Assembly: GCA_001773215.1 (NCBI GenBank)
Contig: MEWB01000001.1
Coordinates: 322,473 to 386,472, forward strand
Direction of reading: 5' to 3'
Length of the DNA stretch: 64,000 nucleotides
DNA from: a candidate division WWE3 bacterium RIFOXYC1_FULL_40_10
GTDB taxonomy: Bacteria; Patescibacteriota; WWE3; UBA101185; UBA10185
Below, one piece after another: positions 5,507 to 60,581 of this stretch (within the stretch, counting starts at the first letter, position 1; every line of letters begins with the position of its first letter). The notes below the pieces were generated by a model. It made no database searches. It saw nothing but the letters and a program-made list of their open reading frames with translations, and was not told the origin of the DNA. The translations under genes and the position numbers were made by a program.

Positions 5507-6367
5507 ATGCAAAACATAATTGACTGGATAAGAAATAATAAGCTTACAAGTGTGTTGTTCTTGATACTAGCTTTAGTACTCTTTCAAGGAACTACTAAAA
5601 ATAAATATGGCAATACAATTGTTTCAGACGCAGTAGTCTATCAGGAGGCTGCAGGTAAAAGAGGTTTGGAACAAGTTCCCGCTCAACAACGAAGAGTAAT
5701 CACCAGCTCCAGTTTTTCTTTGCTTGTTGAAAAGGTTGTAGACACAGCGGATGCAATAAAGCTTGAGGTTGAGAAATTAGGCGGGTACGTTATAAACACA
5801 AATATTTCACATCCGGAGTCAGGAGATTACGCTTATCTTAGTATTAGAGTACCCACAGATAAAGTACCATCTATCCAAAAGCTATTAAGAGACAAATCGG
5901 TAAAAGTAGTAAATGAAAATATTTCGGGGGATGATATTACGGATCAGTACATAGATATTCAGGAAAGACTGACAAAGTTGGAAAATACTAAGAGAAGACT
6001 TGAAGAAATTATGGTTCTAGCAAAGGATGTAGACGAAATAATGATGGTTCAGCAAAACATTTTCAATCTCCAGGACCAGATCGATAGTTATAAAGGCCAG
6101 TTAAAGTATATGAATGAGGCTACAGCTACCAGCTTGATCAGTATCGACTTATCTACTGACGAGTTAGCACTGCCCTATACTCCACTGGATGTTTGGAGAC
6201 CGGGTGTTGTATTTAAGTTGGCGGTGCGATCTATGTTGGGCACCTTGCAGCAGCTAGGTACTGCTGCGATCTGGCTAGCAGTTTACGCAGTACTACTAGT
6301 TCCAGTCCTAATAGCTGTTAAACTGGGATTAAACATAATTAGGAAACGTCAGTCAAAAGTTTTGTAA
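5507..6367 (+). CDS. membrane-anchored coiled-coil protein (N- and C-terminal TM helices, DUF4349-like architecture)
   Basis: N-terminal TM, central heptad-rich region (QERLTKLENTKRRLEEI...), C-terminal TM; architecture-only call. Confidence 0.4.
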   Translation: MQNIIDWIRNNKLTSVLFLILALVLFQGTTKNKYGNTIVSDAVVYQEAAGKRGLEQVPAQQRRVITSSSFSLLVEKVVDTADAIKLEVEKLGGYVINTNISHPESGDYAYLSIRVPTDKVPSIQKLLRDKSVKVVNENISGDDITDQYIDIQERLTKLENTKRRLEEIMVLAKDVDEIMMVQQNIFNLQDQIDSYKGQLKYMNEATATSLISIDLSTDELALPYTPLDVWRPGVVFKLAVRSMLGTLQQLGTAAIWLAVYAVLLVPVLIAVKLGLNIIRKRQSKVL

Positions 6368-37294: not shown

Positions 37295-37295
37295 A

Positions 37296-37405
37296 TGGTG
37301 CCGAGAGAGGGACTTGGTCACCGGTTCTCGCCTGGAGGCGATCCCGTCGACCCCACCTCGCCGCCGTCGCGGCTGCGGCATTCAAGTCCGTTAAATTTCC
37401 ACTTA
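37296..37405. mobile_element. miniature GC-rich element: a 21-bp copy of the tRNA-Leu(CAG) 3' end (37296-37316) plus an 87-bp GC-rich segment homologous to the left arm of the tRNA-Lys serine-recombinase element, immediately before the intact tRNA
   Basis: tggtgccgagagagggacttg occurs at 37296 and again as the tRNA 3' end at 37406; the following gtcaccggttctcgcctg...cccgtcgacccc...ggcattc aligns with 39744-39830. Confidence 0.6.
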
Positions 37406-37491
37406 TGGTGCCGAGAGAGGGACTTGAACCCTCACGTCCGTTAGGACACTGCCACCTGAAGACAGCGCGTCTGCCATTTCGCCATCTCGGC
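37406..37491 (-). tRNA. tRNA-Leu (anticodon CAG), long variable arm
   Basis: GCCGAGA/TCTCGGC acceptor, anticodon stem CTGTC/GGCAG with loop TTCAGGT, TTCAAGT T-loop, CCA encoded. Confidence 0.75.
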
Positions 37492-39717: not shown

Positions 39718-39929
39718 GGTGATGGTGAGGACGGTGGGATTCGGTCACCGGTTCTCGCCTGCTGGCTCGCCCGTCGACCCCGCCTCCTTCGCCTTCGCCC
39801 AGTCCGGCATTCTCACCCACCTCTTCTGCCAGTTGGTGTATCTGTTTGCCTGGTGGGATAACATTACGTTCCCCGAAGTGAATTATACAACAAAGTACCC
39901 TTTAACCCTTACCTACGAGGATATAGACA

Positions 39930-40247
39930 GTGCAATGGTCAGAATTGGAAGTAGAGTCTATGTGTAGGCTGTATAATAACTTTATGCAGGGTATACAGAC
40001 AAAAGACGCACAAGAGTTTGACCCCAATGTGTTGGAGGAAATTGTAGTAGTAGATTATTCGGAACCGGATGTAATTAAGTCCATATACTCACCAACGCTA
40101 TTTCCGCACCTTAAATTGACTACCAATGCCGTTAGCAGAGACATTGAAGTTGTTGTTGTATCAACGGAAAACGAAGATAAGCAATTACTCCACAAACTTC
40201 TGACGGAAACAAGAACGGCTCGTAATTATGTTTTGAATAAGTGCTGA
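39930..40247 (+). CDS. hypothetical protein (element cargo)
   Basis: ORF track only. Confidence 0.35.
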   Translation: MQWSELEVESMCRLYNNFMQGIQTKDAQEFDPNVLEEIVVVDYSEPDVIKSIYSPTLFPHLKLTTNAVSRDIEVVVVSTENEDKQLLHKLLTETRTARNYVLNKC

Positions 40248-42908: not shown

Positions 42909-44717
42909 ATGCCGACATTAAACTCACAAGACAAACCAGTTAAAGTAGCCTATTACCTACGAGTAAGCACGGATGACCAGATTGACCGTTATGGTATTGC
43001 ACTTCAAAAAAGGTCATTGGATGCCATTGTAGCCTCTCGTGGGACTCTTGAAGATGGAAAGACGAACGCATTACAACTCGCCGGAGAACAATACATCTAC
43101 AAAGATGAAGGTGTCAGTGGAACCATACCACTGGAAGACAGACCGGCTTTTGCGAGACTTCAAGAAGATGTTGTAAATGCACCGGACGGAGAAAAACCGT
43201 TTGATATTGTTGCCGTTTACAAAATTGACCGTTTTGCCCGAAAATTAAAGATTTTACTTGACGTCATTGAGTTCTTTGAGAAATACGGGATTAAGTTCAT
43301 ATCCGTACATGAGAGTATTGACACTTCAACTCCATTTGGGAGGGCGATTTTAGGGATTGTTGGTGTGTTGTCAGAACTTGAAATGGAAACGATAGCAATG
43401 CGAACCAGAGCCGGCAAAGAGGAAGCGATTGCAAAAGGTGTTTTCATGGGGAAAGTACCTCCATACGGCTATATCAAAGATACTGAACGAAGGCTTAAAG
43501 TGCTACCAAAAGAGGCAGAAATTGTGAACGTGATATTTGAAAAGTTTGTGGTTGAAAGGTTGCCGTTACAGGCTATATGCCGGTATTTAGAAGATAACAA
43601 GATTGAATCACCCGGAGTAACAGCAGTAACCAATCAAAAGCGTAAAGGCGGTATATCAAAGAAAAGCAACCCGTTCTTTTGGGCGACACCAATGATAAAA
43701 AACATACTTGGAGATGAAATCTATCTTGGAAAATACTACTACAACAAGACAAAGGGTAGAAAACATTTACCGAAAGCGGAGTGGAAATTGTCTGTATACA
43801 GATACGAGGCGATAGTTGATACCATCACCTTTGCGAAAACTCAAACACTGCTTGAAAACAGAAAGATATTCAATGTGGTGAGACATGACGACAAGCATAT
43901 TTACCTTTTAAGCGGTTTACTGAAATGTGCCTGTTGTTACAACCCGGAAAGAGACAAAAACGAAGGTATGCAAACATTGCATGGTGAACCAAAAGAAATC
44001 CACAAAGGTAGCCAGCACTATACTTACTACTACAAATGCAGAAGGAAAACTACTGCAAAAACCTCAATCAGATGCGGTTCGCTTCCCTTACCGGCTGAAC
44101 AAATTGAGAAATATGTTATTGAGAGACTCCGGGAACTTCTCACTGACCCAAAAGCAGTGTTTAATTATCAACTAAAATTAAGGTCAACAGAACAGGAACT
44201 TAAAAGGCTAAATACGGATTATGATATGATTCGCCGATTAAAAAATGGTCTACCACAAAGAAAATCAAACCTAAAAGAACAGCAAGAATACAGCTATATT
44301 ACCTCAAAAGAACTTACCGAGAAACTCAATGCACTTGATTCACAAGAAAAAGAGTATGACGGGAAACTGGCAGAGTGGGAAGCAAAAATATCAGAAACTA
44401 AACTAGACGAAGGTTACATCAAGAGTTTTGAAATCTTTGAAAAACAATACAAGAAGGCTTTGGAAGACATAAATAGCAACAGAGAAACATTACAACAATT
44501 ACTTCGGATGATAGTTGACAAGATAGTTGTTCACTCCCGACCAGTTAAGGAAGGAGACATTATAGCCGGAAGAAAAACCGGAGACCAACAGGTGCCGTAT
44601 AAAATAGAAATGAAACTACATTTGCCACAAGAGTATCTCAAACTTTTAGAAGCAAAAGCCAACGAAGCATGGGTCAACAGACCGGAGGAGTTCGGGGATA
44701 AAAATGTTAACTGGTGA
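42909..44717 (+). CDS. large serine recombinase (resolvase N-domain + recombinase domain + zinc ribbon + coiled coil)
   Basis: Catalytic-serine motif YYLRVSTDDQ; resolvase-domain motif DRFAR; Cys cluster CACC...C...C; ~600 aa typical of LSR integrases. Confidence 0.85.
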   Translation: MPTLNSQDKPVKVAYYLRVSTDDQIDRYGIALQKRSLDAIVASRGTLEDGKTNALQLAGEQYIYKDEGVSGTIPLEDRPAFARLQEDVVNAPDGEKPFDIVAVYKIDRFARKLKILLDVIEFFEKYGIKFISVHESIDTSTPFGRAILGIVGVLSELEMETIAMRTRAGKEEAIAKGVFMGKVPPYGYIKDTERRLKVLPKEAEIVNVIFEKFVVERLPLQAICRYLEDNKIESPGVTAVTNQKRKGGISKKSNPFFWATPMIKNILGDEIYLGKYYYNKTKGRKHLPKAEWKLSVYRYEAIVDTITFAKTQTLLENRKIFNVVRHDDKHIYLLSGLLKCACCYNPERDKNEGMQTLHGEPKEIHKGSQHYTYYYKCRRKTTAKTSIRCGSLPLPAEQIEKYVIERLRELLTDPKAVFNYQLKLRSTEQELKRLNTDYDMIRRLKNGLPQRKSNLKEQQEYSYITSKELTEKLNALDSQEKEYDGKLAEWEAKISETKLDEGYIKSFEIFEKQYKKALEDINSNRETLQQLLRMIVDKIVVHSRPVKEGDIIAGRKTGDQQVPYKIEMKLHLPQEYLKLLEAKANEAWVNRPEEFGDKNVNW

Positions 44718-44786
44718 GGACGGTGGGATTCGAACCCACGACCAAGGGATTAAGAGTCCCCTGCTCTACCACTGAGCTACGTCCCC
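44712..44786 (-). tRNA. tRNA-Lys (anticodon CTT)
   Basis: GGGGACG acceptor, GCTCAGTGGTAGAGC D-arm, anticodon loop CTCTTAA, TTCGAAT T-loop, CCA encoded. Confidence 0.8.
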
Positions 44787-44901
44787 GCAGCAACAAGAGT
44801 ATTTTAGCAGAATTATTGCATTTTTACTCTATATTGTTGAGGAAGTCTTAAAACTATGAGATAATGGCCCGAGATTTTCTAGCACAGGTATAGGAGAGAA
44901 A

Positions 44902-45297
44902 ATGAACTATATAATAACTCATGCATGGAAAACTCTTCCGAGTAAACTCTTAGTGAAGTTTGAATTTATGTTAAGTGATTCCGTTCATTTCATGTCAGCA
45001 GAAAGCGTTAAGAATATGCTTAGCCAAGTACCGATGTGCGTGTTTGAGCATATTCCATACGAGATAACAGGTAAGAGCCCTTATGAATTGACAGTGCGGT
45101 TTATAGATTTTCTTACAAGGATAGAAATTAACTGCCCGCCATCATGTTTTAACGGCATGCCAGCTTTACCTGTTTTTATTCTCTGTTACCTGGAATTGTA
45201 TAAAAGCAGTTACGTTTACCCAGTGGGTATGAATAATTGGTTGTGTGATATGAAAAGTGCCGGGTACTTGGCAGAAAATGGAGTGAAAAATGGCTAG
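44902..45297 (+). CDS. hypothetical protein, first of a tandem paralogous pair
   Basis: C-terminal YPVGMNNWLCDMKSAGYL parallels YPMGLTQLLNFLVDKGYL of the next ORF. Confidence 0.4.
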   Translation: MNYIITHAWKTLPSKLLVKFEFMLSDSVHFMSAESVKNMLSQVPMCVFEHIPYEITGKSPYELTVRFIDFLTRIEINCPPSCFNGMPALPVFILCYLELYKSSYVYPVGMNNWLCDMKSAGYLAENGVKNG

Positions 45298-45691
45298 ATA
45301 CTCAATTACCGAAAAAGGCCTTAAAACAGAACGTTGCCCTGCCGGAGCTTTGACGTTATTCCAGCAAGTATTAAGAAATATACGGCAGATTAACACCAAA
45401 GAGGATTTTACCCTCTGGCTATCAGATAACAGCTCTTATTTCGTCAAGTTTATGGGGATCGACTGGGAGCTAATTGGGCCGCTGAATAGGAATGTCGGTG
45501 AGGTCATTACGCGGCTTGAAGAGGTTGAAGTATTGACCGGTTCCCGTACTGAAAGCGTACCTGCATGGTTATATTTTGTTCACCAGGTTGTATGTTACTA
45601 CGCTCTTAACAAAGCCGGTCTGTACCCAATGGGTCTCACCCAACTGTTGAACTTTCTGGTTGACAAGGGGTATCTACAGGCCTCAGATTAG
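45290..45691 (+). CDS. hypothetical protein, second paralog (C-terminal motif weakly reminiscent of BlaI/CopY winged-helix recognition helix)
   Basis: 8-nt overlap with the previous ORF; LTQLLNFLVDKGYL resembles TLLNRLVKKGFL of the BlaI/CopY family, but at the C-terminus rather than the N-terminus. Confidence 0.4.
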   Translation: MARYSITEKGLKTERCPAGALTLFQQVLRNIRQINTKEDFTLWLSDNSSYFVKFMGIDWELIGPLNRNVGEVITRLEEVEVLTGSRTESVPAWLYFVHQVVCYYALNKAGLYPMGLTQLLNFLVDKGYLQASD

Positions 45692-45725
45692 TATCTTTGG
45701 CAAGGTAGCGATAATTCACACTTCG

Positions 45726-47906
45726 CTATCTTGCTTCTCTTCCAAGCCTCAAACTATTTCCAACCACAGATACAGAGCTTAAAGCCATAGCTACACTTGC
45801 CATTACCGGCGATAACAATACTCCTATAAACGGATACAAAATCCCGGCTGCGACTGGAATTCCTAAAATATTATAGCCAAATGCCCAAACTAAGTTCTGC
45901 TTAATAATCGTTAACGTCCTTTTTGAAATCTGTATTGCCTCCAAAAACTTATCCAACGTCCCTTTAACTAATACAATGTCTCCCGCCTCGATAGCAACGT
46001 CGGTACCGGTTCCCATAGCAATACCTATATCGGCTTGAGCAAGAGCAGGTGCATCGTTAATACCATCACCTAACATGGCGATAACACTATTGGGATCACG
46101 GCTTTTAATGTTCTTAATTTCTTGAGCTTTTTGATCAGGTAGAACTTCCGCTATATACTCATCTACTCCCAACTCATGTGCAATAACATCTGCTGTAACT
46201 TTATTATCCCCGGTTAACATTATTGTTTTGATGCCCATGGCATTGAGTTTGTATATAACGTCCTTTGCATCTTCTTTTGGTGTATCAGCGAGGCTGAACA
46301 AACCCGCCAAATTGCCATCCCACGCTATATACGAAACCGTTTGGCCTTTTTGCTGTAACACGGCTGCTTTTTCAGTTATCATTGAATTTGTAACAATCCC
46401 TTGTTGTTCCATAAAGGCCTTAGTGCCAATCCATACCTTTTTCTCATCCACAATTCCAAAGATTCCAAAACCGGGGTAATCTACAAAACCCTCTACAGAT
46501 AAAGCCTCACTAAGTTTCTGTGCTTCATAATAGGCAGTCACTGCCTCGGCGAGCGGGTGTTGGGATAACTTCTCAAGCGAGTATAAAACTTTATTTGAAT
46601 ACTCAGCATCTAGCTTTTCCGAGAATTCTATTACTTGAACCTCAGGCTGGCCTTTTGTTAAAGTGCCGGTTTTATCAAAAACCACATGAGTAATCTTATG
46701 AGCTGTTTCTAATGCCCGGGCGTCCTTTATTAAAATGCCCTTTTTTGCAGACTTACCTGTGCCAACCATTACTGCAGTGGGAGTTGCCAAACCCAAAGCG
46801 CAAGGGCAGGCAATTACCAACACCGTAGTTGCAGTATAAATAGAAAATTGGGCACTTTTCCCCACCGCAAAAAACCAAAAAGAGAAGGAGGCAAGAGCTA
46901 TAGTAATCACGACAGGGACAAAAACTCCGGAAACTTTATCGGCAAGCCGTTGGATAGGAGCTTGTGTAGCTTGAGCCTGCTCGACCATTTTAATAATTTG
47001 AGCAAGAAGGGTATCAGACCCTACCTTTGTTGCTTTAAACTGGAAACTACCGGTTTTATTAAGAGTAGCTCCGATAACAGCGTCTCCAACCTTTTTTGAC
47101 ACCGGCATAGACTCTCCTGTTACCATCGACTCGTCTATATCGGTTGAGCCTTGAGTTATTTCTCCGTCGACAGGCACTTTCTGTCCGGGTTTTACTACTA
47201 CAATATCCCCTACCTTAACTTCTGAAATGGCAATTTTCAATTCCTTGCCATCACGTATTACAACTGCATCCTTAGCCTGAAGCTCAAATAATGCTTTTAT
47301 AGCCCCTTGAGCTTTCTTTTTGGCAGAAGCCTCAAGGTAACGCCCCAACATAATAAAAAATATTATAAAAACCGCGGCTTCAAAAAATACTTCTTCGGTT
47401 TCGAAAATGCTTGGTGCAAAAGTTACAACAGTAGAGTATCCCCAAGCAGTTAGCGTACCCATCGACACTAAAGTGTCCATGTTTGCCGTTTTGGATTTTA
47501 GGGCGATGAATGCACTTTTTAATATGTCCCAACCTCCTATAAAAAGATAAGGTGTGGCAATAATAAATTGGATAAGCGGTGGTCCCGACATCGTGAACAT
47601 GAAATACAAAAAAGGTGCTAGAGCAGCTCCCATAAATATAAGTTTCCCCTTCAATCTGTCCCGGAGCTGCTCCTGATGATGTGTGGTTTCATCCAGAAGC
47701 TTATATGCTCCTACACTGGCAACAGTTTGTTTCAATTTCTCCAGGCTTAAAATTTCATCATCGTAGGTAATATAAAGTTTTTCGGTTGCAAAATTTACAG
47801 TAAATTCATCAGTACCGGGTAATTCTGCTATCGACTTTTGAAGTAAAATTTTGCATGAGGCGCAGTGCATACCAACTATTGGATAGGTTTTTGTTATTTT
47901 GCTCAT
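45726..47906 (-). CDS. copA: copper-translocating P1B-type ATPase
   Basis: N-terminal HMA GMHCASC; CPC in TM6 (CPCALGLATP); DKTGTLT phosphorylation site; GDGINDAPAL hinge. Confidence 0.9.
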   Translation of the reverse strand: MSKITKTYPIVGMHCASCKILLQKSIAELPGTDEFTVNFATEKLYITYDDEILSLEKLKQTVASVGAYKLLDETTHHQEQLRDRLKGKLIFMGAALAPFLYFMFTMSGPPLIQFIIATPYLFIGGWDILKSAFIALKSKTANMDTLVSMGTLTAWGYSTVVTFAPSIFETEEVFFEAAVFIIFFIMLGRYLEASAKKKAQGAIKALFELQAKDAVVIRDGKELKIAISEVKVGDIVVVKPGQKVPVDGEITQGSTDIDESMVTGESMPVSKKVGDAVIGATLNKTGSFQFKATKVGSDTLLAQIIKMVEQAQATQAPIQRLADKVSGVFVPVVITIALASFSFWFFAVGKSAQFSIYTATTVLVIACPCALGLATPTAVMVGTGKSAKKGILIKDARALETAHKITHVVFDKTGTLTKGQPEVQVIEFSEKLDAEYSNKVLYSLEKLSQHPLAEAVTAYYEAQKLSEALSVEGFVDYPGFGIFGIVDEKKVWIGTKAFMEQQGIVTNSMITEKAAVLQQKGQTVSYIAWDGNLAGLFSLADTPKEDAKDVIYKLNAMGIKTIMLTGDNKVTADVIAHELGVDEYIAEVLPDQKAQEIKNIKSRDPNSVIAMLGDGINDAPALAQADIGIAMGTGTDVAIEAGDIVLVKGTLDKFLEAIQISKRTLTIIKQNLVWAFGYNILGIPVAAGILYPFIGVLLSPVMASVAMALSSVSVVGNSLRLGREAR

Positions 47907-49265
47907 TTAGTTAACTACAACCGTTACCGGCTGTACCATTCCCATTGAACAGGTGATTTTATAGGTACCGGGTGTTTTTGGTGTAAATTCAAACACATTC
48001 ATGCCCGGATTAAGCTGTATTATAGATGGGTAAAGACCACGCGCTGATACTGACCTAGAGCAGCCTACGGCTCCTTTGTTATTAAACTCCCATCTAACAG
48101 GGATCCCTGCCTTTAGTGTCACATTTTTAGGAGAATATTCAAACCCACTTGCTTCCATCCTTAAAATTTGGGTACCGCTACTATCAACATCCACCGCTTT
48201 GGTATCGCTGGTATTTACTGCGGTTTTGTCTACGGAGATTAAGTCGCTAAAACTTTTTAAACCCAGTACGTTTAGCTGGGAATTTAGCGTATTTATAGCA
48301 AAAAACACAACTAATGACCCCGCGATTACCCCAAATAGTTTTGACATACCTCTATGGTTATATAGCTTTAGGCTGGAAAAGCTCACAAAGGTTAGCATTG
48401 GGAGTGTTCCCAACGCGAAGGCTAATAATATCAGAGAGCCTGTGATAGGGTTTCCGCTGGCCAAAGCTATTGTTTGTGTAACTAAGGTGAATCCACAAGG
48501 AATAAAGAATGTTCCGGCTCCAATTAAAAATGGCACATACTTGCTTTTGATGGCAAAATCGTTTGAGACTAAGAAGGAAGCGAACTTGGGGGTTTTTATA
48601 TTAAATTTGTTTGCAAAATTAAACCCCATCATTTGTAAACCCAAAACTATCATAACCGCTGATACAGCTAGCGTCAGAAGGGCTGTAATACTAAGTGATA
48701 TCTGGAAGGTTTTGCCAATAAGGCCCAATAAAAATCCGAATGCGGCGTATGAAACCAGCCTGCCTATATTAAATAATACGAATGGAGTGTAACTTTTCTT
48801 TGAGTTAAGCCCGTATAGATCTTGCCACTTCTTGGATAAGGACAATAACAAACCGCCCACCAATGCGGCACAACTCGATACACCGGCTACCATTCCGAAG
48901 ATAAAAAAAGCACCCAATGAGGATGTTGAATTAACATTAAATGCCTTAAGTAATCCGGATCTCTCTACATATAGGAAACCGGTAATCAAAAATACAAATA
49001 TTACAAAAGCCTTAAACAGCTGAGCCTCGGTTATTTTAGGCTCCTCGGGCTTGTTCCTAGAAATCTTGTACCCGAGATCTCGGAGCTTGGAGTTTATACT
49101 ATCAACGTCAATTCGACCATCTAGGGTTACCTCGCATCTTGATAAAGATGCCTCAACTCCTTTGTAACCCTCTTCTTTTAGAGTTTTTTCTATTAGTAAT
49201 TCGCACGAGGGACAGTGCATCCCTTGAACATAGTACGTATTGGTATCTGTGGATTTATTGTTCAC
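47907..49265 (-). CDS. HMA-domain membrane protein with a C-terminal cupredoxin-like/Met-Cys domain, co-transcribed upstream of copA
   Basis: N-terminal GMHCPSCELL HMA motif; ~8 TM helices; C-terminal ~100-aa beta-rich domain with GCSRS and CSMGM. Confidence 0.6.
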   Translation of the reverse strand: MNNKSTDTNTYYVQGMHCPSCELLIEKTLKEEGYKGVEASLSRCEVTLDGRIDVDSINSKLRDLGYKISRNKPEEPKITEAQLFKAFVIFVFLITGFLYVERSGLLKAFNVNSTSSLGAFFIFGMVAGVSSCAALVGGLLLSLSKKWQDLYGLNSKKSYTPFVLFNIGRLVSYAAFGFLLGLIGKTFQISLSITALLTLAVSAVMIVLGLQMMGFNFANKFNIKTPKFASFLVSNDFAIKSKYVPFLIGAGTFFIPCGFTLVTQTIALASGNPITGSLILLAFALGTLPMLTFVSFSSLKLYNHRGMSKLFGVIAGSLVVFFAINTLNSQLNVLGLKSFSDLISVDKTAVNTSDTKAVDVDSSGTQILRMEASGFEYSPKNVTLKAGIPVRWEFNNKGAVGCSRSVSARGLYPSIIQLNPGMNVFEFTPKTPGTYKITCSMGMVQPVTVVVN

Positions 49266-49276
49266 AACATTATTGT

Positions 49277-49292
49277 ATAGATAGTTATCTAT
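49277..49292. promoter_or_regulatory. 7-bp inverted repeat (ATAGATA-gt-TATCTAT) upstream of the cop operon start, operator candidate
   Basis: Palindrome read directly, 12 nt upstream of the HMA-gene start codon. Confidence 0.3.
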
Positions 49293-49364
49293 GTATGCAA
49301 CCCCCTTGTTATTTCTAATTAATTAAATATAATCCATTGAAACAACGTATACAGGAGACTAGAG

Positions 49365-49793
49365 ATGACGCTATTTATAATTGCGGTTTTACTTTCAATC
49401 TTTTTCGGTCCATTCATTGTACCCATGCTTTTACCGGGGAAACTTGTGACAAGAATAGCTGTAAAGCTGTATAAGGCTAATAAACTTGAAAAATGGGCTT
49501 TTCTTTTTGGTAAAGTATATAAGAGTTATAGCCTTAAGGTAGGATCCCGCAACCCTAATTTCAGATTTTTTAGGGATAGGGTTTACGAAATTTGGTTTGA
49601 GAGCGATCACAACTCTTGGTTAAAGACTGAAATCTTCGACGACATCTATCCCACACAGAGTGTGCGAATGTTTAGCGAATGGACTAGAAACCCTCTGGTT
49701 AGGGGCCGTGAGATCAAGTACATCAAGACTCTCTGTATCCGCAGAGTTCCGTGTGCGTCGATGTTCAACCTTTTACTTGAGGTCAAGCTTTGA
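49365..49793 (+). CDS. hypothetical membrane-anchored protein (uncertain; overlaps an alternative frame)
   Basis: ORF track only. Confidence 0.3.
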   Translation: MTLFIIAVLLSIFFGPFIVPMLLPGKLVTRIAVKLYKANKLEKWAFLFGKVYKSYSLKVGSRNPNFRFFRDRVYEIWFESDHNSWLKTEIFDDIYPTQSVRMFSEWTRNPLVRGREIKYIKTLCIRRVPCASMFNLLLEVKL

Positions 49794-49887
49794 CTATAGG
49801 GTAGATTTGTGGTATACTGCCGTCACCGAACTTTCTTCATTAGCCCAAAGGAGGCCTATATGCTCTAACTTTAAAAAGGAGAGCAAA

Positions 49888-50091
49888 ATGAAGAAAAGCA
49901 GTTTCAGAACTATCCACCAAAAGCGCCACGGAAAGAACCACAAGTATAGCTCTACCTGGCCCGATTCAAAAGAACTATCCTTCATAAAGAGTCGGACAAA
50001 TAGGGTTATCAGACATACGAGCACAGATGTGGAAATTCCAAATGGCTGTTGTTATAAAAAACTGGTTAGCCACCTTTTTTACCGAGACTAG
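49888..50091 (+). CDS. 67-aa basic hypothetical protein (MKKSSFRTIHQKRHGKNHKYS...) with a good SD
   Basis: AAAGGAG 6 nt upstream of the ATG; lies in-frame inside track ORF 49660..50091; followed by a terminator. Confidence 0.35.
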   Translation: MKKSSFRTIHQKRHGKNHKYSSTWPDSKELSFIKSRTNRVIRHTSTDVEIPNGCCYKKLVSHLFYRD

Positions 50092-50099
50092 CCAAGGAT

Positions 50100-50133
50100 G
50101 GGAAGTTACATAATATGGACTTCCCTTTTTTTA
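50100..50133 (+). terminator. Rho-independent terminator
   Basis: gggaagttacataatatggacttccc followed by ttttttt. Confidence 0.55.
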
Positions 50134-51378
50134 TCCTAAAACTAGTTCTTTTACTCCGCCAAATGAAATTCGATCTAAAACTTTTTCCTTGGCGCTTAAC
50201 ATACGTGCAGGGGTAATAATAAAATCTCCCCAACGCCCTGTAACCAAATCTATAGCTTGTGCCAGATTTTCTTTTTTAGAAGAATTATCAAATATTCCTA
50301 GTTGAACCTCTGCTTTTTGGGTGAGCATACAGCAAGATACCGCCAAGGTATGTATCGGATATGAATAAGGGGATTTTCGTAAAATTTTGTAAGCGGCTTT
50401 ATAAATATCTTCAATGTTAAACAGAGGTTCCGCTGTTTTTCTTCCCATGTGCCAATGAAAACCATTGTTATACAAAATAGAAACGTGAACGTGCTGTGTC
50501 TTATAACCGGCTCTTCTCATGCGAATAGTAGATTTTTGTACCAGCTTTTGTAGTATGGGCGTAATTTGTTCGATTTTAGATGGTTGCTCTTTAATGGCAA
50601 AGGAATTACCAAAGCTTTTTCGCCCAAAATCGATGTCGTCAACCTCCCATCCGCGTAATCGCAAAAACCATCGGTATCCTACAATCGACTGGAAAGCACG
50701 TTGCAGTACTTCAGCAGGAGCGTTGTAGAAATCTGTAACTGTATGAATGCCTACTTTGTTGAGCCTTACTGCATTATTGTTGGCAATACCGCATAGGTCC
50801 GTTAAATCAAGCTTGGCAAAGATTCCAGAGAAGTTGTTCACATTAATTTCATCCAAACCATCAGGTTTCTTCAAACCGGCCGCAGTTTTAGCTAACAAAC
50901 GATTAGGTGCAATTCCTATTGAAACAGTCAACCACTCCCCTATTTCCGATTTTATACGTTTTTTAACTTCTATTGCGGTATTTATTATGCCGATTTTTTG
51001 AGCCGGAAATCCCTCTAAATCTAAAACAAACTCATCTATAGATTTAGGCTCCAAAACATTAGTATAACGGGCCAATAATTTTCTCAACTGTATGTGAACA
51101 GTTCTGTATTTCCAAGGATCGGGTTCTAAAACGATTAGATCCGGATATAGCATCTTTCCTTCTTGCACCTGCATACCGGTTTTAATCCCAAATCTTTTAG
51201 CCTCAATAGAAGGTGCCAGAATACATCCCCGGGGACTGGTGTAGGCCGCCACCGCAATGGGCTTACCTCGTAAGAAAGGATTAGCCTGCTGTTCTATAGT
51301 GGCAAAACAAGAGTTTAGATCGATATGCATTATCGTAGGCGGTTTGGGGTTAAAAGTTAAATTAGTCGGGTATTCCAT
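50131..51378 (-). CDS. Y-family DNA polymerase (DinB/Pol IV-like, catalytically intact)
   Basis: IDLNSCFATIEQ (Asp/Glu catalytic motif), SIDEFVLDLEG, SIGIAPNRLLAKTAAGLKKPDGL (little-finger/thumb region). Confidence 0.85.
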   Translation of the reverse strand: MEYPTNLTFNPKPPTIMHIDLNSCFATIEQQANPFLRGKPIAVAAYTSPRGCILAPSIEAKRFGIKTGMQVQEGKMLYPDLIVLEPDPWKYRTVHIQLRKLLARYTNVLEPKSIDEFVLDLEGFPAQKIGIINTAIEVKKRIKSEIGEWLTVSIGIAPNRLLAKTAAGLKKPDGLDEINVNNFSGIFAKLDLTDLCGIANNNAVRLNKVGIHTVTDFYNAPAEVLQRAFQSIVGYRWFLRLRGWEVDDIDFGRKSFGNSFAIKEQPSKIEQITPILQKLVQKSTIRMRRAGYKTQHVHVSILYNNGFHWHMGRKTAEPLFNIEDIYKAAYKILRKSPYSYPIHTLAVSCCMLTQKAEVQLGIFDNSSKKENLAQAIDLVTGRWGDFIITPARMLSAKEKVLDRISFGGVKELVLG

Positions 51379-51622
51379 CTGATATTTCCTCCAACTGCCA
51401 GGATAAGTTATCGGTATTTAGCAGCAGTTTAAAAAAAGCGGTATCTGATGAAACTGAAAAAACGTGATATCTGGTTGTTCCTTGTTTAAAGCTATGGCGA
51501 TAGCCCAATTTACTGATTTTATGAGTTTCCCCGTCCCACTTTAAGGCCAAAACGTTGTATTGACCACTTTTATGGTTATAGGCAGAAATTACTGTAACAG
51601 GAGCTTTTATTTTTTGTATCAT
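51362..51622 (-). CDS. small protein co-transcribed with and overlapping the Y-family polymerase (possible YolD/UmuD-like accessory factor)
   Basis: 17-nt overlap with the polymerase start; the operon logic mirrors umuD-umuC / yolD-uvrX; no motif confirmed. Confidence 0.4.
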   Translation of the reverse strand: MIQKIKAPVTVISAYNHKSGQYNVLALKWDGETHKISKLGYRHSFKQGTTRYHVFSVSSDTAFFKLLLNTDNLSWQLEEISDGIPD

Positions 51623-51704
51623 AGTACCGAATAAAACCCGAATAAGTATATTAAATAACTTTAGAGGGAAAATTGCAAGAGGTGTAGAATAGACTTAATA
51701 AAGT

Positions 51705-54700
51705 ATGGACAATAAAAACACGTTTTACACGCTTGGAAGAGACCTGGCTATAAAGAAGAAATTCCCGCCAAAAAGAATTTTCCCGCTTATTAGAAAACAT
51801 AGCGATTTAGACTACAAAACCTTATATTCCCGTTTCGGAAATTTATATGCGTACTTAGTTTCGGAATACGAAAAAAACCCTGAAATAGTGCCCCTGGCCG
51901 CCTCGTGGATACTTGATAACTACTACCTAGTCAGCCAACAGTATGTCTTATTTGAGAAAACCTTTAAGACTAAGTTATTAAAAAAACTACCGTTATCGGA
52001 ATACGATCGGGTATATTACCAGATACACTATATAGCCAAAAAATACCTGGAGGCTACAAATTGTAGTTTTTCCGAAGAAACACTAATCCCATTTTTGAGG
52101 GGGTATCAGAAAATATACCCGTTATCTAGCCTCGAAATATGGATTTTGCCAACTGTGATCAAATTCGAGCAGACCCTAACCCTACTGAATAAAGGCTACG
52201 AGATCAGGGATAAAATTCAGAACGCTAAGTTTGCTGATCAGGTGGTTCAAATAATAGCTAACGACTTAAGCAGAAAGAAAAACCCGGTAAAAAAGATGAA
52301 TAGGATATTAAGAAGCCCGAACATGAACCCACATGTTCTTCTGGCCGTTCTTGAGGACGTAAGGGAATTAGATTATAAGGTAGAAGAAACACTGGCTCTT
52401 GTGGAATCCAAAATTCACGAGGAAGATCTAAACCTCGAGGAATATACCCGTGCAAGTGTGTTAAGAGATATTAATCTAAAACAGACCCTAAGTAACACAG
52501 TTTTGTCAATCAAAAATTTCTTCTATATAAACTGGAACAAGTTCTATAACAAAGTAAGCATTGTTGAAAGTACGCTCAAACTGGATCCGGCAAATATCTA
52601 TGCGACCATGGACGATATAAGCAGAGACAGATACCGCCATATTATTAGCGATCTTAGCAATAATAGCAATTATAGCGAATCAGAAGTTGCCAGAAAGGTT
52701 GTGGAAACTGCCGCAGCCTCGAATATTGATATCCAACAACACGTGGGGTATCACTTGATAGATCATGGTTTTTTTAACTTTGCTGAAAAAATAGGCTATA
52801 AACCAACCTTTAAAGTATTTGTTATTAACTGGCTAAAAAAGTACCCTAACTTGGGTTACATGGGAGGCATCTTCTTAATAACAGTAGCTTTGTCAGCGCT
52901 TTCCTTTTTTACAGCAATAATAGTTTCCCATAACTTGCTTTTCACACTCCTGTTCTCGGTTGGTCAGCTGTTTATAGCTTCTAACCTGGCAACTCTGATT
53001 ATTAACAAGTTATTAGCCTACATTCTTCCTACAGCGCTTCCTCCCAAGATAGAGTTGAAGGACTTTATTCCCGAAAACTGCAAAACCATGATAGTTATTC
53101 CAAGTATGCTTTCGGGAATGGAAAAAGTAGATAAATTAGTATACGAATTGGAGAAAAGATTTCTGTGTAACAAATACAAGAATCTCTTTTATGCTCTTCT
53201 ATGTGACTATAAGGACTCCGACGTTGAAGAATCCGAGGGTGATTATCAACTTTTAGCCTATGCAAGGGAAAAAATAAGGGAGCTAAATGAAAAACATATG
53301 GATGAAGGCTTTAACGTGTTCTATTTTTTCCATAGGAAACGCCAATTTAGCCAAAAGGAAGGCGTTTGGATGGCATGGGAGAGAAAACGCGGAAAATTAC
53401 TTCAGCTGGTTGAATGGCTCACAAAAGAAGGTAACTTTTTCTCGGTTATAGATGGGGATTTAGATAAATTAACTGATATCAAGTATGTAATTACACTAGA
53501 CGAAGACACTATGCTGCCAGCCGATTCTGCTTTAAAGCTCATAGGTGCGATGGAGCACCCTCTTAATCGTCCAGTTGTAAACCCCGATACTAGAATAGTG
53601 ACAAGAGGTTATGGATTTATACAGCCCAGAGTAATACTGATGCCCGAAGCTGAGGGACTTTCGAACTTCACGCACATTTTTGTAACAGAAAGTGGGTATG
53701 ATTCCTATTCTAATGCCACCTCGGATATTTATCAGGATTTGTTTAATCGGTCTATCTTTTGGGGCAAAGGAATATTTGACGTACAGGCTATAAAGGAAAG
53801 CCTTGGAGATAGGTTCCCTGAAAACCGAATTCTTAGCCATGATTTGATTGAAAGCTGTTTTTCCAAAGCGGCCTACCTTTCGGATACAAGCATAATCGAA
53901 GACTACCCTCCAACCTTTAATAGCTATCTAATGCGGGATAGCAGGTGGATACGTGGAGATTGGCAATTAATACCCTGGCTGTTCCCGAATATTATGTCAA
54001 AAGGGAATACATTCGAGAAAAACCCTCTGGATTTCCTCTCGAAATGGTTAATATTCACAAATTTGAGAAGAAGCATGATTTTACCGCTTTTTCTTTTCTC
54101 ATATATGCTAAGCTGGCTTGTAATAAAATCCGACATATTAACAGCCTATCTATCGGTTCTATTCTTTTCCCAAATATTTATTGAGCTAGATGATATTTCA
54201 AGGCCAATTAGCCATAAAATGCCTCTCACTGAAAAACTTATCTTAATAGTTTCCTCAGTTAAAAAGAAAATTACTCTTGTAGGCGCATATTTTGTTGGGC
54301 TTAGTCTGCTAGCCCTAAATAAAACTCAGGCGATACTAATATCGCTATATAGATTGTTAACAAACAAACACCTGCTGGAGTGGACTACATTCGACGAAGC
54401 TCAGCAACTTGTTGATAAAAATGCCAGTCTGCGGAAACAGCTATTGTCTCCATTTACAATCGCAAACTTACTAATAATTTTATATCTGGTGCAATCGGGT
54501 AAGGCTACCGTTATCAACACGGCGATAATTGTTCTATGGTTACTCTCCCCTGCTATATACACGCATATTAGCCGTCCTTTGAAGACAAAAAAACTTCGGG
54601 AGTACATTACGGATAAGGAAAGGATGCTCTCGTACGCCAAAAAAATATGGCTATTTTTTGAGAGTTATACCAACGAGGAAAGTAATCACCTTCCTCCGGA

Positions 54701-57700
54701 TAACCTGCAGCTCATACCTACTACAAAAATCGCATTTAGAACATCTCCAACTAATATTGGTTTTTATCTATTGTCACTGCTATCAGCCTTTGACCTGGGC
54801 ATTGTCACGGCGGATAACTTTGTAGATAGACTTAAAAAGACACTTTCTACGATTGTGAAGCTAAAAAAGTATGAGGGCCAGCTATATAATTGGTATGACG
54901 TAAAAACGCTTGAACCTTTAAACACCTACATATCTACGGCCGATGCCGGAAATTATGTGGCTACGTTAATGCTTTTGGAATCAGCATGCGATGATTTAGT
55001 CAAAAACTCAACGAGTTTGAGTAAGGAAAACATCGAAGAGCTAATCTACGTGCGTAAAGCACTCAAAAGTTTGTATTTGGCCTCAGACTTTACCTTTCTA
55101 TACAACAAGAATATGGAAGTATTTTCGATAGGGTTTAATTCGGATACATGCGAAAAAGACTCCAGCCATTACGATTTTCTAGCATCTGAAGCTAGAATAA
55201 CAAGCTATGTTGCGATAGCTCTTGATCAGGTTGAAACGAAGCATTGGTTTAATATCTCAAGGCCCTATCAAGTAAGAAAAGGAAAGTTCTATCTTATGTC
55301 TTGGGGCGGAACAATGTTCGAATATCTCCTACCCACGTTACTTTTTAACGAAAAAGATAATACACTGCTGGGCCAAACTGCTAAAGAAATTTGTTCACTT
55401 CAAATAAAGTATGGACATGACAATGGTATACCGTGGGGGATTTCTGAATCTAATTTCGATTCGTTCGACCTTGATGCAAATTATCAATATAAAATGATGG
55501 GAGTTCCTAAGCTAGCTCTAAAAAGATACGATACTGAAGATTTAGTCATATCACCTTACTCGTCGTTCCTGGCGCTAATGGTAAATCCTGTAGCTGCTGA
55601 AAAAAACCTCAAACTTCTTGAAAAGCATAAAGCTCTGGGCTTGTACGGTTTCTTTGAGGCTATCCATTTCACCAGATCAAAGAAAGACGCTTTGGAAGAG
55701 CAGCTAGTTCAAATATACACGGCTCATCATCAAGGAATGTGTATGGTAGCAATTAACAACGTCCTAAATGATCGCCTCATGGTGAGAAGGATGCATAGTA
55801 ATAACTACGTCAAATCGTGTGAAATACTTTTGGACGAGCGAATCCCTGAGGTGGCGAACGTAGTGGACCCTAATCAGTACGGCTATGATAAAAGGGTCTC
55901 CTCAGTTAAGATTTACGAAAAGGATCGCGTTAGATTTTCGAGTACCCCAAACACATTGTTTCCTATCGCTCAGATTTTCGGAAACGGAAGATACTCTACT
56001 ATGATTACCAACTCGGGGGCAGGATACAGTAAATTTAAAGACATCTATTTGAATAGGTTTAGTGAAGATCTCTCTCTAGATAATTCCGGCAATCATATTT
56101 ACATTAAAGATGTAGACCTAGACTATTTTTGGTCGGCTACCTATCAACCTACCTTAAAACAAGCTGAAAAATATGAGGCTAAGTTCGATGATGAGCATGC
56201 TGAATTTCATAGGCTAGACAGGAACACAAACACCTCTCTAACAGTACTGGTCCCTCCTGAAAAGAATTTCGAACTAAGAATTCTAACACTTAAAAACTCA
56301 TCAGTATTTCCTAAGGAATACGAAATCACTACGTATAACGAAGTAATGCTGGACGACTTTAAGGCCGGGGTTACTCATCCTGCTTTTAATAAACTGTTTA
56401 TAGAAACAAGTTGCATCGACGAAATACTAATTGCAAAACGACGGAAGAGGAATCAAAAGGACCCGGATAGATATGCGTTCCATTTTGGATACTCCGAAAC
56501 AGAAGACTTCACACTGGATTCTTACGAAACATGCCGATCAAATTTTGTAGGACGAACTAAAACCCCACGAAATCCGGTTATGATGCACAAAGTATTAACC
56601 AACACCCTTGGAGCGGTATTAGATCCGATATTTAGCTTGAGATATAAAGTTAAGCTACTTCCCGGCGAAACGAAAAAGATATATTTCGTATATGGATATG
56701 CTACCAATCCGCATGAGATTAAAGCTACAAAAGACCTTATTCAAGCTAACGGGTCTATAAGTGAATTAAGTTATTTGAACGGGCACTATGTAGAAGCCCG
56801 CAGAACGCATTTGGGAATTACCGTTGGACAGGAGATAACCTTCCAAAGAGTTGCATCCCGACTAATCTACCCGGACTTTCGTCTTCAGGAACAGTCGGAT
56901 TTGCAGCACTACAAAGGAAAAAACGTGTTGTTTAGATTCGGTATATCGGGGGATAACAAAATATTAGTTCTAAAGGTTAATAGCACAAACATAGAGATGC
57001 TCAGGAACATGGTGTTGTTGCATAAATACCTTAGAATACTGCGCTTCCAGATAGACTTAGTGTTTCTAATTGACGAAACGATAAGCTATGAGGAAACGTT
57101 AGAAAGAGATGTAGCTTCCTTAGTTGGTCCAGAAGAAAAGAATTCTGGAATCTTCATCCTGAATGTTGTAAACATGTCTATTGAGGAAAAACATACTTTG
57201 CTGGCTTTAGCCAAAGCTGTATTTGATACTTCTCTTGGATCTCTCGATGAGCAAATTAGCATCGCCACAAGGTACTCGGAACCCGGAGTTGTTAAAGTTC
57301 CACCAACTCGCCGCTCTAATGTGATAGAAAGCATCGGCACAATTAAGGAGGAACTGGATGACTTGGAGTTCTACAATGGCTTGGGCGGTTTTTCTGATAA
57401 CGGCAGAAAGTATTCAATAAACTATAACCCTAATTACCCTACTCCTTTGCCCTGGACAAATGTTATCTCCAACGAAACATTTGGAACTGTTGTGTCAGAA
57501 GCGGGATTGGGGTACACCTGGAACATCAATAGCCAGATAAACAAAATCACTCCATGGTCGAATGATTATGTTTGCGATCCACAAGGCGAGGCGATTTATC
57601 TCAAGGATACACTAACCGGTGCCGTTTTTGGTGCAACTCCTCTGCCGTGCAATGACTCGGAATTCAGTGTAGTGCATGCCCCGGGTTATACGGATTATAT

Positions 57701-59732: not shown

Positions 59733-59835
59733 TGGCGCCCCCAAGAGGATAATGGTCGAACTCTTTTTGAAAAGCTATATGGCTATTTCAGCAAAAGAGA
59801 TTTGCAAGTTTATACTTCCTAGAGATAAACAAAAA

Positions 59836-59866
59836 CCCCTGTCTGATCGCATATATCACACAGGGG
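59836..59866 (-). terminator. Rho-independent terminator for the minus-strand ORF 59886..60371
   Basis: cccctgtctgatcgcatatatcacacagggg flanked by aaaaa on the plus strand (a T-run on the minus strand). Confidence 0.55.
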
Positions 59867-59885
59867 TTTCGAATCTAGCTATGTA

Positions 59886-60371
59886 CTAAAACAACTGTCC
59901 ACGGCCTTGCCCCCAGCATGCAAAGTAATTTTTCTCAATTTGCCGGGCGGCCTTAAGCTGCTTCTTCGTTAGCAAGCCCAGCTGAGCATTTCCCGGTTGC
60001 TTTTCTTCATACATTGCTTTAAACAGGCTTTCAAAAAGGACATCCCGCAGCTGTTCGAATGTCAACTCGCCTCGATCCTCTGTCTCGTGATCGTACAGGT
60101 CTACGATGAAACTGTAGACGCAGTCACCGATCAACACGAGCCAACTCGTGAGTTCTGTTTCCGAATCGAGAGTAGCGAAAAAGTGCCATATTTTATTCTC
60201 CAAGTGAGAGTAATAATTTCCCCCATCGTACCTCGTGCAAAACCCGCTAATGTGGCCAAACCCTTCGTAGTTGCCATTCTCTGCCTTTTGAGCCCATGCC
60301 AAATAAGCAGAGTCGAAATGACTGCGGCAAGCTACAAGATCGAGATGACTTACTCTAGCATTTGTACTCAT
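59886..60371 (-). CDS. hypothetical protein (islet cargo)
   Basis: ORF track; GC higher than background. Confidence 0.45.
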   Translation of the reverse strand: MSTNARVSHLDLVACRSHFDSAYLAWAQKAENGNYEGFGHISGFCTRYDGGNYYSHLENKIWHFFATLDSETELTSWLVLIGDCVYSFIVDLYDHETEDRGELTFEQLRDVLFESLFKAMYEEKQPGNAQLGLLTKKQLKAARQIEKNYFACWGQGRGQLF

Positions 60372-60504
60372 TTTTTGTCTCCTTTAAGACAATTGTCACC
60401 CTTTGCCACAACAGCATTGGGTTAGAGGAATTACACGACACAACATCGTGTTATATATGTTGATATTATAACAGAAATCAGGATTTGTCAAACTATAGGA
60501 TATA

Positions 60505-60581
60505 TGGCGCCCCCAAGAGGATTCGAACCCCTAACCTCTTCGTCCGAAGCGAAGCGCTCTGATCCGTTGAGCTATGGAGGC
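60505..60581 (-). tRNA. tRNA-Arg (anticodon TCG)
   Basis: GCCTCCA/TGGGGGC acceptor, anticodon stem CTTCG/CGAAG with loop CTTCGGA, TTCGAAT T-loop, GCCA 3' end. Confidence 0.8.

Follow-up and report, generated by a model that had tools for sequence, protein, structure and literature searches.

What placed a second copy of the 3′ end of a tRNA-Leu(CAG) gene, together with a short GC-rich segment, next to the intact gene in a candidate division WWE3 bacterium? The question concerns a group, the CPR/Patescibacteria, that has tiny genomes and single-copy tRNA genes and whose mobile DNA is very poorly known. We analyzed the locus in a window of 64 kb (64,000 nucleotides of contig MEWB01000001.1, to which the positions below refer) and compared it with loci from other genomes and from metagenomes. 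The explanation that we favor, and hold with moderate confidence, is that the insert is a copy of a non-autonomous miniature element (mini-element) specific to CPR/Patescibacteria tRNA genes, which would insert in the T-loop, carry a structured core, and rely on an enzyme acting in trans.

The tRNA-Leu(CAG) 3′ end is duplicated around a GC-rich module

A preliminary description of this DNA had reported that the terminal 21 nt of tRNA-Leu(CAG) occur twice. This was borne out, and the repeat comprises 22 nt when one extra A is counted: ATGGTGCCGAGAGAGGGACTTG is present in two copies lying 110 bp apart (Table 1). The description had also placed the break from tRNA sequence at the same T-loop position in tRNA-Leu and in tRNA-Lys(CTT), and both repeats in the window indeed end past tRNA position 56, within the T-loop.

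The 87 bp between the two tRNA-Leu copies had been aligned, at roughly 75% identity, with a segment on the far side of the tRNA-Lys island. We counted 56/76 identities (74%) between 37317–37392 and 39744–39820, with an alignment score of 31 compared with −3.4 ± 4.3 (maximum 9) in 500 shuffles. The homology holds for about 76 nt of the insert and fails for its last 15 nt (37390–37404), which are an unrelated AT-rich spacer. Both conserved segments, hereafter called modules, open with the 18-mer GTCACCGGTTCTCGCCTG, which occurs exactly twice in the window (0 expected), and both have a GC content of 70%, compared with 40% window-wide. The Leu insert contains no ORF, its fragment-module and spacer-tRNA junctions are both intact, and a scan for promoters and terminators around the mini-element revealed nothing beyond background. 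We rejected a protein gene hidden in the module because length variants of 73–77 nt break any reading frame.

Table 1. Features of the tRNA-Leu(CAG) insert and of the tRNA-Lys(CTT) island in the window
Feature	Position	Strand	Evidence and remarks
Displaced tRNA-Leu(CAG) 3′ end (tRNA positions 56–76 plus 1 nt), distal direct repeat	37295–37316	−	22/22 identical to 37405–37426; register as in all other family copies
GC-rich structured module, about 76 nt	37317–37392	−	Covariance model match 37308–37393, 103 bits; MFE fold; covariation; 70% GC
Helix B of the Leu module	37316–37352		
Hairpin A of the Leu module	37355–37379		
9-mer TTCAAGTCC of the Leu module	37381–37389		Inverted copy of tRNA positions 54–62; closing helix P1 with 37310–37316
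AT-rich spacer, module to intact tRNA-Leu	37390–37404	−	Not conserved among family members at different tRNAs
Intact tRNA-Leu(CAG); last 21 nt are the proximal direct repeat	37406–37491	−	ARAGORN; Rfam tRNA, 50 bits
Displaced tRNA-Lys(CTT) 3′ end (tRNA positions 56–76)	39723–39743	−	21/21 identical to 44712–44732, 4989 bp away
Second module copy, subtype ii	39744–39820	−	Covariance model match 39735–39822, 78 bits
9-mer TTCTCACCC, "TC class"	39810–39818		Within the Lys-side module
TGGTGGGAT	39851–39859	−	Homology to L090 and L091 begins exactly here; the distance to 39723 is 128 bp, typical of a mini-element unit
Large serine recombinase, 602 aa	42909–44717	+	Pfam Resolvase, Recombinase, Zn_ribbon_recom; PDB matches to serine integrases and resolvases
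Intact tRNA-Lys(CTT)	44712–44786	−	ARAGORN; Rfam

Tiny inserts of the same layout recur at CPR tRNA genes

Our results show that the Leu insert is a member of a widespread family of tiny inserts at CPR tRNA genes. Scans with the exact 18-mer found at least 29 stretches in species-representative genomes and at least 56 in metagenomes; as these collections were scanned for exact matches, the family size and the copy numbers per genome are lower bounds. Among the matches listed, those in low-GC contigs (0.34–0.45 GC; at least about 40) all share the layout of a tRNA fragment followed by the module. They come from WWE3, the complete RAAC2 genome among them, from Saccharibacteria and Moranbacteria, and from other Patescibacteria. 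The matches listed in genomes above 50% GC lie in ordinary coding sequence, as chance predicts, and the 18-mer found no match in the IMG/VR viral contigs.

We also built a covariance model from 21 distinct module copies and ran it on the loci already found. It recovered additional copies that lack the exact 18-mer in L024, L057, and L008. Copies lie behind 4/5 tRNA genes within 4.9 kb in L024, behind 3/4 of the tRNA genes found in L057, and at two sites in L008; the window itself holds two. Altogether, low-GC contigs of Patescibacteria (CPR), including the three named groups, contain at least about 45 module copies. The literature that we searched does not describe this mini-element family, which appears to be previously undescribed, and the suggestion that the insert represents an undescribed T-loop-associated family is upheld. 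The preliminary description had asked whether further copies exist and whether each sits beside a tRNA 3′-end repeat; they do exist, and all those listed have such a repeat.

The layout of the family is constant. An intact tRNA is followed by a spacer of 3–60 nt, a module of about 75 nt, and then tRNA positions 56–76. Read from the other end, the displaced fragment ends in ...GGNNTYG, the 18-mer and the remaining GC-rich module come next, and the intact tRNA lies 69–152 bp on in most copies. The module is always in tRNA orientation and is found inside tRNA clusters. Its targets so far comprise at least 14 tRNA species: Ser(GCT, CGA, GGA, TGA), Leu(CAG, TAA, TAG), Arg(TCT, GCG), Ala(TGC), His, Lys, Pro, Tyr, and Glu. 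The unit length of the mini-elements clusters at 97–152 bp, and insert sizes overall are 69, 97, 110–152, 897, 1684, and 4989 bp. Some units form tandem arrays, with two units identical at 151/152 positions in L073 and units of 97 bp in L056.

The direct repeat corresponds to tRNA positions 56–76 in 21/23 loci and measures 21 nt in most. A few repeats have 22–23 nt, as chance extension gives, and the one in L061 has 30 nt. A target-site duplication of fixed length is not cleanly supported by these figures, because the repeats are mostly 21 nt but reach 30 nt in L061. A duplication of host flank as the source of the spacer was likewise rejected; no significant similarity was seen, save 9 nt in L061.

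The Lys-side module matches a mini-element at a Moranbacteria tRNA-Arg(GCG) (L026) at 48/50 positions, and the Leu module matches its closest copies, which are in other genomes, at 43/49. The two modules resident in the window share only 35/50 positions, which places the Leu module among those least similar to the Lys-side copy.

Occupied and empty target sites

The preliminary description had proposed a comparison with relatives that lack the insert. Empty counterparts were found in other genomes for two tRNA genes, and they are known only from comparisons of distant genomes. The tRNA-Arg(TCT) gene bears an insert in L013 but not in L021; within a Gly-Arg(TCT)-Leu(TAA) cluster, the Arg-Leu gap measures 17 nt in L021 versus 165 nt with the insert in L013. 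The tRNA-Ser(GCT) gene bears one in L024, L057, and L076 but not in L008. We found no relatives whose proteins fall between 58 and 99% identity to those of the window organism, and no circular form of the mini-element was seen.

Within the species, the arrangement was uniform. Twenty-four contigs encode the same cyclophilin, and the six that were listed all keep the 197-nt gap holding the tRNA and the mini-element; none of these six carries an empty allele. Such constancy would fit a different reading, in which the module and its 21-nt tail are a small RNA retained by the host, co-transcribed downstream of the tRNA and ending in a tRNA-like ...CCA tail, its match to the tRNA being kept by selection or gene conversion, and not currently mobile. 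We consider this reading unlikely. The distribution of the modules is patchy, as a given tRNA species can carry the insert in one genome and lack it elsewhere; tandem duplicates occur along with internally deleted or AT-decayed copies (L023, L036, L039, and L021); and the presence of modules identical at 48/50 positions in different CPR classes and at different tRNAs suggests horizontal spread. A GC content of 70% within genomes of 35–42% GC also speaks against a resident gene. Other properties of the family would nevertheless suit a retained RNA, namely the constant tRNA orientation, the location in tRNA clusters, and the identity of the displaced 21-mers to their tRNA in about 20/23 loci, which persists although spacers at the same tRNA are strongly diverged (L030 versus L058).

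The module is predicted to fold into a covarying three-way junction

On the tRNA-sense strand, helices P1, A, and B of the module are predicted to meet in a three-way junction. In P1, the 5′ end of the module (GGANUYG) is paired with positions 56–62 of the displaced fragment, i.e. its first 7 nt. Hairpin A consists of an outer 3-bp and an inner 5-bp helix, and the long hairpin B comprises helices B1, B2, and B3. RNAalifold and single-sequence folding both give this P1/A/B fold, which is also the MFE fold of the Leu copy in the window.

Among the 21 copies found via the 18-mer, P1 and hairpin A covary strongly, and helix B is partly fixed by the search itself. The copies recovered by the covariance model are free of this ascertainment bias in helix B. 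For 28 distinct copies, in an alignment fitted to the model, 90.7% of the cells are paired, 17/26 pairs are changed on both sides, and the covariation score is 0.297, compared with 0.104 in shuffles and at most 0.047 in slid controls; every helix covaries. In copies found by the covariance model, CUCGCC/GGCGAG of B3 is replaced by CGCAUC/GAUGCG or by CGCAAC/GUUGCG. The same set of copies shows a G-C to A-U change in B2. In one copy (L057:2328), B1 has changed from GGUC/GACC to GCCU/AGGC, so that the pairs G-C, G-C, U-A, and C-G are replaced by G-C, C-G, C-G, and U-A.

Unpaired residues are conserved as well. The AGCA loop, a GAG, and the GAA that follows P1 are kept even in the most divergent copy and, together with the covarying fold, would also be expected of the retained small RNA considered above. 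Single-sequence folding energies are unexceptional, with z-scores of −0.4 to −2.0, and Rfam gave no match to the module on either strand (E ≤ 10 for the window, E ≤ 1 for variant copies). Counts of G·U pairs by strand (8 versus 7) do not discriminate between the strands. Most non-Watson-Crick cells are G·A on the tRNA-sense strand (43 versus at most 12 of pyrimidine type), with tandem G·A in P1 and B3. This mildly favors the tRNA-sense strand as the one that would fold, either as RNA or as single-stranded DNA.

A 9-nt segment of the module matches the local T-loop

The P1 strand contributed by the module is related to the target. A 9-mer composed of GGANUYG and the two following As is the exact reverse complement of tRNA positions 54–62. 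It matches the T-loop of the local tRNA perfectly in 12/21 copies, across 10 different T-loop sequences, and the match to the tRNA is sharply confined to those 9 nt. A subset of copies that we call the TC class, including the Lys-side copy in the window, has TC for GA at positions 57–58, which gives a tandem G·A in P1; the 9-mers of this class carry two central mismatches. The UC-to-GA alternative is seen in B3 as well.

These features raise the possibility that insertion is guided by nucleic acid or is structure-specific, with the folded module presenting the 9-mer, the 21-nt tail, or both to the T-loop and thereby picking the site for an enzyme acting in trans. Nine nucleotides complementary to positions 54–62, which span the break and are matched over 10 T-loop sequences, are what such a reading calls for, yet a hairpin-templated (quasi-palindrome) correction after insertion would match the 9-mer to its surroundings too, and the TC class copies with their two central mismatches fit guidance poorly. 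In the layout of the element, a scaffold precedes 21 nt that are the same as the flank of the target, and the module is conserved in structure rather than in sequence, but the 30-nt repeat of L061 fits a captured flank better than a fixed mechanism. Likewise, the regenerated target and the tandem arrays resemble the behavior of CTX phage, but no candidate enzyme is encoded nearby. On balance, we regard guided insertion as quite improbable. There is a correspondingly slim chance that the module is a scaffold-plus-guide RNA or single-stranded DNA, with the 9-mer and possibly the 21-nt tail directing an enzyme in trans, which would make it a new class of guided tRNA-specific mobile element. Guide-assisted targeting by a serine recombinase is a further possible variant.

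The tRNA-Lys island and its serine recombinase

The only recombinase gene in the window (42909–44717) lies beside tRNA-Lys, and its stop codon falls within the tRNA-Lys 3′ end. We found 373 homologues of the protein, largely in CPR genomes and hundreds of them at 45–60% identity. The homologue genes examined likewise border or overlap the 3′ end of a tRNA, which is tRNA-Lys in a Levybacteria contig, tRNA-Phe in L088, and an unidentified tRNA in L096. Judged from these positions, the homologues constitute a putative family of serine recombinase islands that target tRNAs, in itself an unusual finding.

Several side observations were made on these islands. The homologues in L086–L089 and L094–L096 are 47–56% identical to the recombinase of the window, and some of them end inside a tRNA; the stop codon of the L088 homologue, for one, falls in the T-loop of tRNA-Phe. 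As cargo, homologue islands have either type I restriction-modification, AbiTii, AAA_15, and Schlafen-like genes or genes for conjugation (a coupling protein and a relaxase). Contigs with these loci often stop right at the tRNA.

The preliminary description had inferred that the recombinase at 42909 mobilizes the Leu insert in trans. Our data do not demonstrate this; the Leu module is closer to foreign copies than to the copy resident beside the recombinase. Only the window and L091, a relative with 90% identity, have a module beside a recombinase; neither the module nor a tRNA-fragment repeat was found within 10 kb of the homologues in L086–L089 and L094–L096; and the flanks examined of the approximately 45 module loci contain no recombinase homologue. 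We regard the recombinase-module link as weak. The idea that the Leu mini-element encodes a serine recombinase of its own was rejected, as it has no such ORF.

A third island, in L090, bears on the role of the Lys-side module. Its recombinase is 96% identical but truncated, and the island starts at the same place as in the window, GGTGGGAT/AACATT, with unrelated DNA leftward and no module. Because an island this similar lacks the module, the "left arm" of the recombinase element described previously may be a second mini-element in tandem with the island. The Lys-side module would then be a mini-element in its own right; otherwise it forms the far arm of the recombinase island. The sequence TGGTGGGAT could bear on this choice. 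It may be a truncated second tRNA-Lys fragment, shortened by a 9-nt slip deletion, that marks the true left edge of the island; if so, the Lys-side module would be separate, and the island would have inserted later into the regenerated tRNA. Alternatively, and we are uncertain on this point, it merely represents the Trp-Trp-Asp codons with which a conserved small ORF begins. This ORF (...WWDNI[T/E]FPEVNYTTKYPLTLTYEDID...) is located at the left edge of the island in the window (39833–39967), in L090 (from about 4905), and in L091 (from about 115), and it has no Pfam match. Its product is a candidate accessory or directionality factor.

Both in the window and in L091, a recombinase island has a module at its far end, which suggests yet another reading. 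The module could be the attP-side arm of recombinase islands, and the mini-elements could be attL-attR pairs left after cargo loss (CIMEs or solo att scars) that are inert or moved only by accretion with a full island. The spacers disagree with this origin: those beside the tRNA often contain terminator-like hairpins and resemble tRNA trailers rather than the 3′ ends of recombinase genes. The continuous range of insert sizes, from 69 to 4989 bp, would be compatible with cargo loss, and a regenerated tRNA could be a target again, but the uniform unit size over many independent tRNA targets is difficult to reconcile with decay. The first 11–18 nt past the junction are the most sequence-conserved part of the module, and a conserved length of about 24 nt would suit an attP half-site in the att architecture of phage serine integrases (PMC3783163); however, this presumed half-site covaries. 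By eye, 9/18 positions are shared between the junction arm and the tRNA 3′ end mirrored about positions 57–58, and the same stretch covaries as B1–B3. Moreover, distant recombinase homologues have no module within 10 kb, the island in L090 has none, and the Leu module is not derived from the copy of the resident island. Taken together, we judge an origin as att scars to be distinctly unlikely. The more specific proposal that the Leu insert is the residue of a deleted sibling of the tRNA-Lys element is also unlikely, given the same architecture at at least 14 tRNA species, the covarying structure, and spacers that do not derive from a recombinase 3′ end.

Other repeats and insertions at tRNA genes

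The window contains a further tRNA repeat. Eighteen nucleotides of the 3′ end of tRNA-Arg(TCG), TGGCGCCCCCAAGAGGAT (positions 59–76), recur 772 bp from the intact gene (59733–59761 and 60505–60581). The fragment is followed by AATGG and then TCGAAC, an arm that differs from the GC-rich module, and a 161-aa ORF (59886–60371, − strand) lies between the repeat copies. This repeat appears to be the remnant of a different T-loop insertion. The distance from tRNA-Lys(CTT) to tRNA-Arg(TCG) is 36 nt in L090 (7813–7999) versus 15.7 kb in the window (44787–60504), where an ORF of 2675 aa (51705–59732) ends exactly at the tRNA-Arg fragment. The 15.7-kb interval is probably another island.

The motif ACCGTnnCAAAnnnGGTCACCTAAAAC follows a truncated tRNA-like fragment in two unrelated contigs, at 5940–5975 in L091 and at about 5735–5770 in L017. 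In L091, it follows the recombinase stop codon, and there is no tRNA at that place. In L008, a tRNA with a duplicated 3′ end at about 215–310, with a module downstream of it at 355–440, was not called by ARAGORN. This tRNA may carry an insertion or intron of the kind reported for Patescibacteria tRNAs (PMC13011429).

A model for the insertion

Our preferred reading, a mini-element moved in trans, draws on the observed architecture, its recurrence at many tRNA species with up to four copies per 5 kb, the tandem arrays, and the covarying fold. A site-specific event in the T-loop would break the tRNA gene between positions 55 and 56 and rebuild it with a 21-nt copy of positions 56–76, leaving the other copy stranded beyond the insert. 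As payload, the element would bring not a gene but a nucleic-acid module of about 75 nt with the P1/A/B three-way junction, in which the target-matched 9-mer would pair with the first 7 nt of the displaced fragment. The target would be regenerated on insertion, making tandem arrays possible. We infer that the element moves, or has moved, as a unit through the action of an enzyme provided in trans. The fold, adopted by RNA or by single-stranded DNA of the tRNA-sense strand, would be needed either for insertion or for the insert to be tolerated.

The sole candidate seen for the moving enzyme is the family of tRNA-abutting large serine recombinases. In their favor, both the recombinase of the window and its homologues border or run into the 3′ ends of tRNA genes. 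The covariation of B1–B3 near the junction counts against the model, as it is unlike a double-stranded protein-binding half-site; so do the absence of a recombinase from the flanks examined of about 45 loci and the absence of the module within 10 kb of the distant homologues and from the island in L090. The 21-nt repeat and the matching of the 9-mer at new tRNAs could arise by capture of a tRNA end, by a duplication-type mechanism, or by hairpin-templated correction.

Implications

The occurrence of the mini-element in WWE3, Saccharibacteria, Moranbacteria, and others means that repeated insertion at essential genes is tolerated even in these small genomes. The combination of a fold and a target-matched segment makes it testable whether base pairing assists in choosing the site or protein does so unaided, and the scaffold-plus-guide reading, if true, would add a nucleic-acid-guided, tRNA-specific class to the mobile elements of CPR bacteria. 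On the practical side, assemblies break at the GC-rich module and the displaced fragments, which can also mislead the annotation of tRNAs in CPR metagenome-assembled genomes, and a tRNA-targeting serine recombinase family with defense cargo may interest integrase engineers.

Comparison with known systems

Group I introns in Patescibacteria tRNAs interrupt the anticodon loop at position 35/36, and their description mentions neither the T-loop nor a duplication (PMC13011429). We rejected a group I intron because the tRNA is intact and the insert follows it, the module has about 75 nt whereas such introns measure at least about 200 nt, and Rfam gave no intron match.

The preliminary description had also considered the insert MITE-like. 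Small, non-coding, non-autonomous, and multicopy in some genomes, the mini-elements share this much with MITEs. They differ in that the flanking duplication consists of 21 terminal tRNA nucleotides and that targeting is strict to one tRNA position. The comparison breaks down at the element ends. Transposase-type terminal inverted repeats are missing, and the sole inverted repeat is P1, of 7–9 nt, one arm of which is target sequence. With a repeat of 21 nt of tRNA (30 nt in L061) and no transposase seen, we rejected a MITE in the strict sense.

Islands and prophages of the tyrosine integrase class are closer in layout; Williams is said to have described their integration at the T-loop sublocation of tRNA genes in 2002. 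As in the mini-elements, the direct repeat runs from the T-loop to the tRNA 3′ terminus, the copy borne by the element restores the tRNA, and the displaced fragment marks the far end. In contrast to these islands, most mini-elements are gene-free, and their conserved end is a covarying fold with a target-matched 9-mer. A Pfam scan found no tyrosine integrase among the ORFs between 39930 and 44717.

CIMEs are remnants of integrative elements that are flanked by att sites and lack a recombinase of their own (PMC5704250, PMC6323972). They resemble the mini-elements in being small, non-autonomous, and flanked by both junctions, and at the tRNA-Lys of the window one may have accreted in tandem with a full element. 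The Leu mini-element has both junction types without a recombination module, as a CIME does, and the conserved module is common to the Leu insert and the tRNA-Lys island; the island in L090 has none, and the Leu copy is nearer to foreign copies. CIMEs, however, are kilobase decay products without a structured core, whereas the mini-elements are units of 97–152 bp with at least 14 targets and covariation.

Among serine recombinase systems, transposases of the TnpX/TndX type use a GA crossover. To our knowledge, serine integrases have rarely been reported at tRNA genes, and they need no structured arm; the link between recombinase and module seen here is confined to one lineage. The likeness lies in a bona fide enzyme that abuts a tRNA, in the dinucleotide GA/AA at positions 57–58, which could be a crossover, and in about 24 conserved nucleotides by the junction.

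Finally, folded single-stranded sites are used by integrons (attC) and by CTX phage (attP), and guide RNAs are used by IS110 (bridge RNA) and TnpB (omega RNA). In contrast to these systems, the mini-elements have no associated IntI, Xer, IS110, or TnpB gene, and their predicted fold is a three-way junction. What they would share with them is conservation of structure over sequence, a part of the site that is complementary to the target, and tandem arrays at a regenerated target.
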